Under the pieces are notes generated by a model, which was not told where the DNA came from, ran no database searches, and worked only from the letters and a program-made list of their open reading frames with translations. From the NCBI RefSeq assembly GCF_058153355.1, contig NZ_CM177019.1: 64,000 bases of DNA. One strand, given 5' to 3'. Position numbers and translations under genes: made by a program. Of the stretch, positions 8,853 to 62,286 are shown in pieces (position 1 is the first letter of the stretch; every line of letters begins with the position of its first letter).

Positions 8853-8937
8853 TGGTGCCGAAGGCCGGACTCGAACCGGCACGTATTTCTACGGTTGATT
8901 TTGAATCAACTGCGTCTACCGATTTCGCCACTTCGGC
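8853..8937 (-). tRNA. leuX: tRNA-Leu (anticodon CAA)
   Basis: The minus-strand sequence GCCGAAGTGGCGAAATCGGTAGACGCAGTTGATTCAAAATCAACCGTAGAAATACGTGCCGGTTCGAGTCCGGCCTTCGGCACCA has acceptor stem, D-loop, anticodon loop UUCAAAA (anticodon CAA), the long variable arm of a class II tRNA, T-loop GGTTCGAGTCC and 3' CCA. Confidence 0.92.
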
Positions 8938-14390: not shown

Positions 14391-15905
<1,515 letters not shown>

Positions 15906-42532: not shown

Positions 42533-42997
42533 ATGAATTATCATCAGTACTATCCTGTCGACATCGTCAACGGCCCCGGCACTCGCTGCACCCTGTTTGT
42601 CTCCGGGTGTGTTCATGAATGCCCCGGTTGCTATAACAAAAGCACCTGGCGGGTAAATTCCGGTCAGCCATTTACCAAAGCAATGGAAGACCAGATCATT
42701 AACGATCTGAATGACACCCGCATCAAACGCCAGGGTATTTCCCTCTCCGGCGGCGATCCGCTGCATCCGCAAAACGTGCCGGATATTCTAAAACTGGTAC
42801 AACGCATCCACGCCGAATGTCCGGGTAAAGACATCTGGGTGTGGACAGGCTATAAACTCGACGAACTCAACGCTGCGCAAATGCAGGTTGTTGATTTGAT
42901 TAACGTGCTGGTCGACGGCAAATTTATGCAGGATCTAAAAGACCCTTCCCTGATCTGGCGCGGCAGCAGCAATCAGGTGGTGCATCATTTGCGTTAG
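42533..42997 (+). CDS. nrdG: Anaerobic ribonucleotide reductase activating protein (radical SAM)
   Basis: 154-aa ORF, MNYHQYYPVDIVNGPGTRCTLFVSGCVHECPGCYN..., with radical-SAM cysteines. Confidence 0.92.
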   Translation: MNYHQYYPVDIVNGPGTRCTLFVSGCVHECPGCYNKSTWRVNSGQPFTKAMEDQIINDLNDTRIKRQGISLSGGDPLHPQNVPDILKLVQRIHAECPGKDIWVWTGYKLDELNAAQMQVVDLINVLVDGKFMQDLKDPSLIWRGSSNQVVHHLR

Positions 42998-43288
42998 TCA
43001 CTCATCCAGCCGTTTTGTCGCGTCTTCATAAACGGCTGAGTTCTCTCTCTTACCAATAGCTATCACCAACACGAGTAACTCTTTATCATTGACCTGATAG
43101 ACCAGGCGATATCCCAGTGTGCGAAGCTTAATTTTGTAGCAGTCCGGCAAATCCCGTAGTTTAGCCGATGGATTGCGCGGCCTTTTCAGCACATCCCCAA
43201 GCTTTTTTTTAAATTGTTCCCGGACTTTCACGCCCAGTTTTTGCCACTCCTTCAGCGCCCGCGGATCAAAAGCCAGTTCATAGTTCAT
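42998..43288 (-). CDS. relE: RelE/ParE-family mRNA interferase toxin
   Basis: 96-aa ORF from MNYELAFDPRALKEWQKLGVKVREQFKKKL... ending ...GKRENSAVYEDATKRL; by recollection close to E. coli RelE. Its start overlaps the antitoxin stop by 11 nt, and its stop codon abuts the nrdG stop codon. Confidence 0.85.
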   Translation of the reverse strand: MNYELAFDPRALKEWQKLGVKVREQFKKKLGDVLKRPRNPSAKLRDLPDCYKIKLRTLGYRLVYQVNDKELLVLVIAIGKRENSAVYEDATKRLDE

Positions 43289-43520
43289 CCAGTCGGACCT
43301 TAATGGCCTCCTGTGGGTTGGCCAGTCGTTCCCTGACAGTGCGTAACAAGGCTTCTTCACTATCACTGACAGTGAGCGTTTTTACCGGCATTCGTCCATT
43401 TTCCGCAACGTACTGAAACAGCAGCCGCACTGCTTCAGTAGGCGTGATATTTAATTTTTCCAGCACCGCATAAGCCTCATTTTTCAGTTTGTCATCCAGG
43501 CGGACGTTAAGTGTGGCCAT
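43278..43520 (-). CDS. relB: RelB/DinJ-family antitoxin
   Basis: 80-aa ORF, MATLNVRLDDKLKNEAYAVLEKLNITPTEAVRLLFQYVAENGRMPV..., resembling RelB (ribbon-helix-helix N-terminus), upstream of and overlapping the toxin gene. Confidence 0.85.
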   Translation of the reverse strand: MATLNVRLDDKLKNEAYAVLEKLNITPTEAVRLLFQYVAENGRMPVKTLTVSDSEEALLRTVRERLANPQEAIKVRLDEL

Positions 43521-43545
43521 TATGCCTCCGGTAATTATGAAAAGT

Positions 43546-43578
43546 GTAATGCATTATAGCATTACATATGCATTACAT
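43546..43578 (-). promoter_or_regulatory. Putative relBE-like operator: three repeats of TGCATTA(CA) with embedded palindrome TAATGCATTA upstream of the antitoxin gene
   Basis: gtaatgcattatagcattacatatgcattaca lies 25-60 bp upstream of the antitoxin start; repeats seen directly. Confidence 0.55.
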
Positions 43579-43678
43579 TCATTTCTGGAAAACGCCTCGC
43601 AAAAATGAGGACGACACGCAGGAATATGCCGTAGTGAAGATAGATATTGCGGTGATTTTACGAAGGGGAAGAAAGCGT

Positions 43679-43706
43679 TGGGCGGTAACGTTTCACCGCC
43701 CAATAA
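43679..43706 (-). terminator. Putative cybC terminator hairpin
   Basis: ttgggcgg-N-ccgcccaa inverted repeat immediately downstream of the cybC stop. No strong T run, so this is weak. Confidence 0.35.
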
Positions 43707-43710
43707 GGAA

Positions 43711-44100
<390 letters not shown>

Positions 44101-46174: not shown

Positions 46175-46276
46175 GCCGGATGCGGTGCACCTGTAGGCCT
46201 GATAAGACGCATCAAGCGTCGCATCAGGCACTATGCTCAAATGCCGGATGCGGCGTGAACGCCTTATCCGGCCTAC
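46175..46276. repeat. Cluster of REP/BIME elements between yjgA and mpl
   Basis: gccggatgcggtgcacctgtaggcctgataagacgcatcaagcgtcgcatcaggc ... gccggatgcggcgtgaacgccttatccggcctac. Confidence 0.75.
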
Positions 46277-48887: not shown

Positions 48888-49403
48888 TCAATTAACAAAG
48901 GTTAATTTGACTCGTTTAGATACGCAAAAATAGGGGATCCAGATTGCAAGATGGATGATACTTTTCAGAAGCTCCCATGCATCTGTCAATTCAAATGAGG
49001 CATTAAGAAAGTGCATTGTCCCCCAAATATCAGCCACAATGAATGCAAACAGTGACAGAAGAAGGGCAATATAATACTGTGGAAGCTGGCGTTTTTTGTT
49101 AAAAAACAAATAAGTAGTATAAATCAACAGCAGAAACAAAACGGCAAATCCGGCGGTTTCCAGATAAAGTGCCGTCCTGAGCGGTTCTTCGTAAATTACG
49201 TGAGTAAGCCCCCAAGTATGGATAATTGAATACGCGTTCGCAAGAATACCAAGCACTAAACCAATTGCCGGCAGAAATAGCCAGCCGCCAATCCCTGTAA
49301 GCTTTTTATCCGCACAACTTTTACAATAATCGTCAGGTGGTAAAACAGCCACACCACAGTTTTTACATGTTGTTTGTAATTCTTCGCCGTCCTTCACCCA
49401 CAT
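48888..49403 (-). CDS. Hypothetical AT-rich membrane protein with N-terminal zinc-ribbon (CxxC-N10-CxxC) and about four predicted TM helices (171 aa)
   Basis: Complete ORF MWVKDGEELQTTCKNCGVAVLPPDDYCKSCADKK... followed by hydrophobic segments. By eye it is clearly more AT-rich than its neighbours. I do not recall a gene at this position between fbp and yjfF in K-12. Confidence 0.55.
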   Translation of the reverse strand: MWVKDGEELQTTCKNCGVAVLPPDDYCKSCADKKLTGIGGWLFLPAIGLVLGILANAYSIIHTWGLTHVIYEEPLRTALYLETAGFAVLFLLLIYTTYLFFNKKRQLPQYYIALLLSLFAFIVADIWGTMHFLNASFELTDAWELLKSIIHLAIWIPYFCVSKRVKLTFVN

Positions 49404-52960: not shown

Positions 52961-52984
52961 AGTTTCCCCCGTTGTAAAGCGTGC

Positions 52985-53090
52985 GCCAGATAAGACACAA
53001 CAGCGTCGCATCAGGCATCTCGCACAACCGCCGGATGCGGCATAAACGCCTTATCCGGCGGCGTACAAGTCGGCATCAGGTATTGATGTC
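52985..53090. repeat. REP/BIME elements between ytfR and ytfQ
   Basis: gacacaacagcgtcgcatcaggc ... gccggatgcggcataaacgccttatccggcg match the REP consensus. Confidence 0.7.
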
Positions 53091-54889: not shown

Positions 54890-55237
54890 GTTCTTCTAGT
54901 GCCATAACCCTGAACGCCGGGCTTCGGTTAGTAAGGGTTTTTTATGCCCGCGATAAATAAACTCTCTATTCCCCTATCATTATTCTCAGCGCTTGCAAGG
55001 CTTGAACGGTAAGAACAAGCAAACACGACCACCATTTTGCTGTTCATAGCCGCTTGCTGGAAATTAGCCGACCTCACTCATTCTCACCGTTCAAAGCATG
55101 CCCCCGTTTTACCCCTACGTAATTGTGAACGCCAGCAGAGTTTTTTATGCGTTTACGGATATGGAAAGCGGCTCGGAGAGAAAAGCTAAAGATAGGGAAG
55201 TTACAAAAAAAATCGCGAGATACATCGCATAAAACAA

Positions 55238-62110: not shown

Positions 62111-62286
62111 GTTTTGCATTTATCAGTCGTCTGAATTTTAACCCTCTGGCGACTTTACAGTACCTTACGCTATACTAGCCACTGAAAATGCCGGTTCACT
62201 TTCTTCGAATCGGCTTTCAATGTGTATTTCACACAAATTAATCAACTTCCCCTTCCGAGGATCTGGCCTGAAAGGTCGGATAAGAT

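Follow-up and report, generated by a model that had tools for sequence, protein, structure and literature searches.

On the evidence of its sequence, the gene pair between nrdG and cybC in the window (the whole 64,000-nucleotide stretch of DNA that we analysed, from contig NZ_CM177019.1 of assembly GCF_058153355.1) is with high probability a chromosomal type II toxin-antitoxin operon of the relBE family, a paralogue of relBE of E. coli K-12 and an orthologue of STM4449-STM4450 of Salmonella, inherited vertically at its place beside nrdG. The locus is a known, annotated and catalogued relBE paralogue and it is intact in the window. We regard it as ordinary overall, with its conserved synteny and its shared hairpin as small new observations. 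It represents a chromosomal toxin-antitoxin pair with the behaviour of a core-genome resident: across enteric genera it keeps its synteny and is under purifying selection. Its losses in E. coli can be traced, including a repeat-mediated deletion that left an orphan antitoxin.

Two overlapping open reading frames, of 80 and 96 amino acids, are located on the minus strand between nrdG (42533-42997, plus strand, 154 amino acids) and cybC (43711-44097, minus strand), which is the neighbour upstream of relB in the window. The relB gene (43278-43520) encodes, judging by homology, a ribbon-helix-helix antitoxin that would act as an autorepressor. The relE gene (42998-43288, with ATG at 43288 and the stop codon TGA at 43000-42998) encodes a predicted toxin, a RelE-family mRNA interferase by homology. 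The genes overlap by 11 nt (43278-43288), and this overlap was invariant in every locus and genus that we measured. The stop codon of relE abuts the nrdG stop codon TAG (42995-42997) on the opposite strand, with a gap of 0 nt. The earlier note had given the coordinates and sizes of both frames, their overlap and the flush, convergent stop codons correctly. Its statement that K-12 has no genes at this site also held, as the nrdG-cybC spacer there is 44 bp long. The layout is that of a type II operon: the antitoxin gene comes first and overlaps the toxin gene, and the sole promoter-like element lies upstream of relB. No Rfam match was obtained between 42400 and 44100.

Both proteins were assigned to their families by domain models and by alignment. 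RelB matched Pfam PF04221 (E = 6e-16) and the NCBIfam equivalog NF008412 (130 bits, cutoff 96), and aligned end to end with K-12 RelB (PDB 4fxe_A; E = 1e-20, 48% identity). It retains N5 and R7 of the ribbon-helix-helix strand, and its residues 1-48 are nearly invariant over genera. R7 has a role in the N-terminal β-strand of this fold. In the toxin-binding helix, L58, V62, R65 and L66 are retained and V59 is conservatively replaced by L; the motif of this C-terminal helix (L58, V59, V62, R65) was described before (PMC3507626). With this domain and this helix, the protein belongs to the RelB/DinJ ribbon-helix-helix antitoxins. RelE matched Pfam PF05016 (ParE_toxin/RelE_StbE models; E = 4e-14) and TIGR02385 (28.6 bits, cutoff 27.9), and aligned without gaps to the structures of K-12 RelE (PDB 4v7k; ribosome-bound and RelB-bound; E = 4e-34, 63% identity). 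In this alignment, K52, K54, R61, R81 and Y87 were identical to K-12 RelE (5/5). The first four are reportedly catalytic residues, according to the RelE-ribosome work of Neubauer et al. from 2009. Y87 is needed for nuclease activity (PMC3507626). The RelE chain of 4FXE carries the inactivating change R81A, which was visible in the alignment. Homology and catalytic residues together place the toxin in the RelE subfamily of the RelE/ParE superfamily. The earlier note had called the pair a relBE-like toxin-antitoxin cassette and had named a lack of the RelE catalytic residues as a ground for giving this up; all five are kept, and the Pfam and NCBIfam matches, together with the alignments to K-12 RelBE, support its assignment as a type II operon of the relBE type.

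The exact sequence of RelB is already present in NCBI on at least 1000 contigs, and the exact sequence of RelE is found there under the names of E. coli and E. fergusonii. In public records the exact pair is named RelE/ParE-family toxin and RelB/DinJ-family antitoxin, in E. coli, E. fergusonii and E. marmotae, and PGAP annotates both genes in complete E. coli genomes. In the literature that we searched, no paper cited the RefSeq accessions of the two proteins. The gene call alone changes nothing, since RefSeq already names both proteins and toxin-antitoxin catalogues include the orthologue of Salmonella.

This orthologue, relBE of Salmonella enterica (STM4449-STM4450, also STY4788 and SPA4249), occupies the same position in the same orientation: relB and relE are followed by convergent nrdG-nrdD, with a 3-nt gap in Salmonella. 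STM4449 is listed as relBE (PMC8708949) and STM4452 is nrdD. The proteins are 84% (RelB) and 68% (RelE) identical to those of the window, and both the 11-nt overlap and the embedded hairpin are shared. Unlike in the window, a PRD/EIIA regulator takes the place of cybC upstream. The Salmonella toxin is 94 amino acids long, whereas the Escherichia toxin has a C-terminal extension of 2 amino acids (DE), and because of this extension the gap to nrdG is zero in Escherichia. A 3-codon minigene was reported in Salmonella relB (PMC8708949); we did not see it on reading 43340-43360 of the window. The one paper found to contain experiments on the toxicity of STM4450 (PMC3868539) has been retracted, and we used it for the pairing of locus tags only. 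The pair of the window belongs to this group of nrdG-linked orthologues of the STM4449/4450 type, with the tail-to-tail junction and RelB proteins 79-91% identical.

The relBE pair of K-12 (b1564/b1563, Qin prophage; PDB 4FXE, 4V7J/K) represents the same protein families and the same gene order. The two RelE proteins share 63% identity and the full set of catalytic residues; for RelB the identity is only 48%, with the ribbon-helix-helix part and the C-terminal RelE-binding helix conserved. K-12 relBE is however a paralogue at a different locus, in a prophage and followed by hokD. Its genes overlap by 1 nt instead of 11 nt, and its relE has no 3' hairpin of the kind present in relE of the window. 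The StbDE/RelBE stabilisation modules of plasmids, for example of small plasmids of Edwardsiella, Plesiomonas and Aeromonas, belong to the same family and share the operon design, with toxins 64-66% identical, but they reside on plasmids and have no linkage to nrdG, and no copy is closer than 66%.

We analyzed the history of the site by searching for toxin relatives in a set of genomes with a single representative of each species, followed by tblastn of the flanking proteins. The arrangement of relB and relE followed by convergent nrdG-nrdD was found in Citrobacter amalonaticus, several Enterobacter and four Kosakonia species. The same scan revealed E. coli E69 with a frameshifted relE and E. 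albertii with a degraded remnant at nrdG. Look-ups of RelB homologues added the same arrangement in Salmonella enterica, S. arizonae, Cronobacter turicensis, Klebsiella huaxiensis, Trabulsiella, Kluyvera sichuanensis, Citrobacter farmeri, Enterobacter ludwigii and E. cloacae. The RelB variant of S. enterica occurred in 2292 index blocks, which shows that this species commonly has it. Altogether, relBE lies tail-to-tail with nrdG in at least nine genera of Enterobacteriaceae. The stop codons of relE and nrdG touch in the window (0 nt) and stand 3-9 nt apart in 18 further loci. At the other end of the cassette, the neighbour upstream of relB is not constant: it is cybC in Escherichia, an AraC-type regulator in Kosakonia, a PRD/EIIA regulator in Salmonella, Citrobacter, Cronobacter, Klebsiella and Enterobacter, and others in S. 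arizonae. Median pairwise dS (NG86, near saturation and therefore rough) was approximately 1.2 for relB and 1.1 for nrdG, and dN/dS, equally rough, was 0.08 for relB, 0.11 for relE and 0.06 for nrdG. These results suggest that relBE was not inserted recently and has been inherited vertically, tail-to-tail with nrdG, since before the enteric genera diverged. Repeated transfer of relBE with its nrdG flanks by homologous recombination is a conceivable alternative to strictly vertical descent.

Within E. coli, the cassette was present in 454 of the 5426 complete genomes, always on the chromosome, and in 391 of them over at least 80% of its length. The remaining complete genomes, including K-12, carry in its place a 44-bp spacer with a strong hairpin (-19.5 kcal/mol). 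The comparison indicates that the cassette has been lost in approximately 92% of complete E. coli genomes, K-12 among them. The terminator scan identified a cybC terminator hairpin at 43678-43703 (minus strand), which is specific to the relBE-occupied Escherichia allele; the empty allele has a different hairpin. Intermediate alleles were also observed. In O145:NM, a 283-bp deletion between imperfect 11-nt repeats (TCATCCAG[C/T]CG; in the window at 43002-43012, plus strand, with the second copy at 43285-43295) removed relE and left an orphan relB of 79 amino acids flush with nrdG. The repeats encode the similar ...RLDE C-termini of RelB and RelE. In another E. coli strain relE is frameshifted while relB and the promoter are deleted, and truncated toxin variants of 64 and 82 amino acids circulate. 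The pattern of this allele series points to erosion of a resident locus in E. coli, and the state of K-12 would therefore be the derived one, resulting from deletion.

The earlier note had described the pair as inserted. A reading in which a mobile relBE cassette entered horizontally between nrdG and cybC in the recent past of the strain's lineage could draw on the absence of the cassette from K-12 and approximately 92% of complete E. coli genomes, and on the frequent mobility of toxin-antitoxin cassettes, with RelE homologues common on plasmids (3936 plasmid records). Moreover, the occupied and the empty allele differ by replacement (approximately 710 bp versus 44 bp, with different hairpins) and not by a clean indel. 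Against it, the junction with nrdG is of the same kind in at least nine genera, the borders contain no integrase, IS or target duplications, and the G+C content is native (47-49% in the cassette, 50% in the window). The closest plasmid homologue of the toxin is only 66% identical, on which ground we rejected a plasmid origin of the cassette. Divergence of the cassette among E. coli (95-99%) is like that of its flanks; no peak of divergence from K-12 was seen around it, the whole 27-kb neighbourhood being approximately 94-98% identical. Degraded remnants, seen in E. albertii as well as in lineages of E. coli, and dS values like those of nrdG also speak against insertion. We consider a recent insertion largely refuted and highly improbable; the genes are ancestral at the site, the very outcome that the earlier note had named as speaking against its own proposal. 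A single 97% match filed among plasmids turned out to be a 4.9-Mb chromosome.

A further reading would make the pair a remnant under decay or domestication, whose toxin has lost its nuclease activity and whose RelB persists chiefly as a transcription factor or an anti-addiction antitoxin. In agreement with this, RelB is far better conserved over genera than RelE (79-91% versus 60-72% amino-acid identity), intact orphan relB alleles exist, and truncated as well as frameshifted toxins circulate. However, both frames are intact in the window, the catalytic residues and the RelB-binding surface are all kept, and none of the genera examined has lost the 11-nt overlap. A dN/dS of approximately 0.11 indicates purifying selection on relE. 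We therefore regard a remnant as improbable, and we retain the reading of an intact resident relBE operon.

The last codons of relE contain, on the nrdG strand, a conserved hairpin which, together with the tract that follows it, probably serves as the terminator or 3'-end element of the nrdDG transcript. This candidate intrinsic terminator extends from 43007 to 43051 (plus strand), inside relE codons 79-94, with arms at 43007-43015 and 43030-43038 and a pyrimidine/T-rich tract at 43039-43051. The antisense of relE codons ~84-87 pairs with the antisense of codons 92-94, and the T/C-rich tract lies antisense to the conserved codons for G-K-R-E. In the window the minimum free energy (MFE) of the hairpin is -13.2 kcal/mol (z = -3.6) and its loop is long (14 nt). 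Both terminator scans missed it, the built-in one because the loop exceeds 8 nt and the relaxed one because the tract has 4 T in 9. It was found by folding orthologous nrdG junctions. When the sequence beyond the nrdG stop codon was folded on the nrdG-sense strand, the hairpin was present in all nrdG-linked loci (19/19). RNAalifold gave 9 consensus pairs for these 19 loci, three of which had changed on both sides (GC to AU at 27-54, UA to CG at 31-50 and UA to CG at 35-46). In the alignment of the 19 loci, 82% of cells were paired, compared with 26-54% when the partners were slid by 1-3 columns, and none of 500 shuffles scored as high in covariation as the real alignment. A single clade, Kosakonia, contributes most of the compensatory changes, so that they represent few independent events.

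As a control, we used 56 distinct relE 3'-end sequences that are not adjacent to nrdG, including relE of K-12 and plasmid-type copies. These were mostly without a hairpin in register, even where they encode the same AVY...KRL residues. The mean MFE of all loci as folded was -9.8 kcal/mol for unlinked and -15.2 kcal/mol for nrdG-linked sequences. With duplicates collapsed (13 linked versus 56 unlinked sequences) the difference gave p = 8e-5 in the Mann-Whitney test, in which the lineages are not independent. Since the hairpin is conserved only in the linked loci, it is a feature of the nrdG junction rather than of relE in general, and it is most economically read as a terminator or 3'-end hairpin of nrdDG lying within the toxin gene. 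As far as the literature that we searched shows, a hairpin in the relE 3' end that is confined to nrdG-linked relE is new. The earlier note had stated that the flush stop codons leave no room for an nrdG terminator; there is indeed no intergenic space, but a terminator is probably not missing, as the final codons of relE seem to contain it in antisense orientation.

The hairpin may instead serve the relBE mRNA, as a 3' stabiliser or a translational element, or it may be a by-product of codon constraint, and this we hold to be a real possibility, though short of probable. It forms equally on relE-sense RNA, and the T/C tract, antisense to the conserved GKRE codons, is present in all RelE genes. 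The U-tract is moreover broken up by C, and in Escherichia and Salmonella it is weak; T makes up 4 of 9 positions in the window and 5-6 of 9 in other genera. Evidence against a role in relBE mRNA or a codon effect comes from the relE homologues away from nrdG, which lack the hairpin even when they encode identical residues, and no U-tract follows the hairpin on relE sense. In addition, when relBE is lost, a different hairpin (-19.5 kcal/mol) is found at the same place after nrdG, which suggests that nrdG needs a structured 3' end there.

We tentatively propose, while considering the full proposal rather unlikely, that the 3' coding end of relE was recruited as the terminator or 3'-end hairpin of nrdDG, so that one sequence is shared by both operons, and that read-through couples toxin-antitoxin expression to anaerobiosis. 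Leaky read-through from FNR-induced nrdDG would then run antisense to relE and relB. The relaxed scan detected no terminator-like element for relBE itself within the 3' part of nrdG, minus strand, and therefore the relBE transcript may run antisense into nrdG; such unterminated mRNA would form the second part of the coupling. Coupling of toxin-antitoxin expression to anaerobic transcription of nrdDG is physically possible, and we mention it as speculation. The literature that we searched contained no paper linking relBE with nrdG or cybC, nor one addressing anaerobic coupling. If the proposal is true, the shared sequence would explain why this pair, unlike most toxin-antitoxin pairs, has remained fixed at one chromosomal site throughout the enteric genera, and why a replacement hairpin accompanies its loss in E. 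coli. Confirmed use of the hairpin by nrdDG would provide a concrete mechanism anchoring a toxin-antitoxin pair to a housekeeping operon, as well as a simple test bed for coupling by convergent transcription.

Upstream of relB we observed a block of repeats which is very probably an autoregulatory operator. The putative operator (43545-43577, minus strand) consists of TGTAATGC (43577-43570), a second TGTAATGC (43566-43559), a -10 box and an inverted copy, GCATTACA (43552-43545). Its unit is the 8-mer GCATTACA, with direct copies at 43559-43566 and 43570-43577 and the inverted copy at 43545-43552. The two direct half-sites are 11 bp apart, and the third, perfectly inverted copy lies beyond the consensus -10 hexamer. 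On the coding strand the region reads ...TCCAGAAATGAA-TGTAATGC-ATA-TGTAATGC-TATAAT-GCATTACA-C...(N20)...GGAGG-CATA-ATG. The Shine-Dalgarno sequence GGAGG (43525-43529, minus strand) is located 4 nt before the relB ATG, and GG.GGCATAATG is invariant in the alignment. The 8-mer occurs 9 times in the window (2.4 expected; 0 of 100 shuffles reached 9), with three of these copies lying within 33 bp. In 12 loci of four genera (Escherichia, Citrobacter, Enterobacter, Kosakonia) the operator block TGTAAT.C...TGTAATGCTA.A.TGCATTAC is invariant, while in the same alignment the sequence beyond approximately 90 nt upstream is unrelated or genus-specific. Enrichment of the 8-mer and invariance of the block in 12 loci make the repeats far more than a chance occurrence. 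The earlier note had counted three TGCATTA repeats. These are the half-sites as viewed on the minus strand. Two are exact (43550 and 43569), but the middle copy reads AGCATTA and the true unit is the 8-mer. The palindrome which it placed upstream of the antitoxin is real (TAATGCATTA, 43547-43556), and conservation over genera, overlap with the -10 box and a core in common with relO support its idea of an autoregulatory operator.

Transcription would start from an extended -10 promoter, TGcTATAAT (43553-43561, minus strand), read from the sequence; TGCTA.A.T is conserved over genera. It has no recognisable -35 element, and for this reason a sigma-70 consensus scan that required a -35 element returned no promoter upstream of relB. 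A candidate -35 element, TTGCGA, with a 19-nt spacer to TGTAAT, was judged unlikely. Further upstream, the block TTTTTGCGAGGCGTTTTCCAGAA (43583-43605, minus strand) is conserved over genera as TTTTG.GAG....T.TCCA.AA and forms the upstream edge of the conserved cassette. It gave no convincing match when considered as an FNR-like or CRP-like site.

The K-12 operator relO, TTGTAATGACATTTGTAATTACAA, contains the genetically defined hexad [A/T]TGT[A/C]A in four copies, and changes of spacing are not tolerated (PMC2812701). The operator of the window has the TGTAA core (ATGTAA) in common with relO, as well as two direct copies upstream of an inverted one. The direct half-sites are 11 bp apart in the window and 12 bp in relO. 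The inverted copy starts 14 bp from the start of the nearer direct copy in the window, with the 6-bp -10 box between the arms, whereas it abuts in relO. By its sequence, the element is a putative relO-like operator of different geometry. By analogy with K-12 RelBE, RelB would bind the three TGTAATGC half-sites that bracket the extended -10 element and repress its own operon, with RelE as co-repressor, and its C-terminus would wrap around RelE and neutralise the toxin. As the operator layout differs from relO, the stoichiometry of RelB on DNA is not simply transferable from K-12. The near-invariance of RelB residues 1-48 over genera fits an invariant DNA site.

We compared the amino-acid sequences encoded at the relBE loci of other genomes (L006-L097) and observed that the antitoxin was clearly more conserved than the toxin (79-91% and 60-72% identity, respectively). 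The dN/dS of the DNA-binding half of RelB was 0.055, a constraint equal to that on nrdG. Upstream of the putative operator, the block TTTTTGCGAGGCGTTTTCCAGAA (43583-43605, minus strand) was kept across genera. We considered this block as a -35 element, which it matched poorly, and no FNR or CRP site was recognisable in it.

The cassette was not always complete, and partial cassettes were detected in approximately 60 complete genomes. In E. coli O145:NM, relB was found without relE (an orphan allele, positions 1197-1436 of locus L085). In this allele relE was lost when 283 bp were deleted between imperfect direct repeats of 11 nt; the repeats correspond to window positions 43002-43012 and 43285-43295, where they form the coding sequence for the similar RLDE tails of RelE and RelB.

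Identity to K-12 was only approximately 94-98% throughout window positions 29122-56014. Among 5426 complete genomes of E. coli, a match of at least 99% to the nrdG-cybC region was present in only 12-14, and an identical toxin sequence was common to the window and E. fergusonii records. Taken together, these sequence comparisons indicate an uncommon lineage of Escherichia as the source of the window.

The chpS-chpB toxin-antitoxin pair was missing from the window between ppa and ytfP (about 54972-55105); these genes were separated by 133 bp, compared with approximately 640 bp in K-12, which carries the pair. Since the presence of relBE and chpS-chpB is opposite, two nearby toxin-antitoxin loci differ reciprocally between this strain and K-12. 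Absent from K-12 was a segment of approximately 1.28 kb between ridA and mgtA (31200-32479), containing a 326-aa IS110-family transposase ORF (31393-32373, plus strand; PF01548 and PF02371), which probably resembles IS621. Between fbp and yjfF the window contained a gene for a 171-aa DUF2569 membrane protein (48888-49403, minus strand), while this interval is only approximately 50 bp in K-12.

Elsewhere in the window, Rfam matches were obtained for Ysr276 (14952-15146), the mgtA Mg riboswitch (35391-35506), two naRNA4/REP-type elements (46196-46273 and 52984-53060) and one tRNA (8856-8937), all on the minus strand, and for STnc450 (62168-62225) on the plus strand.
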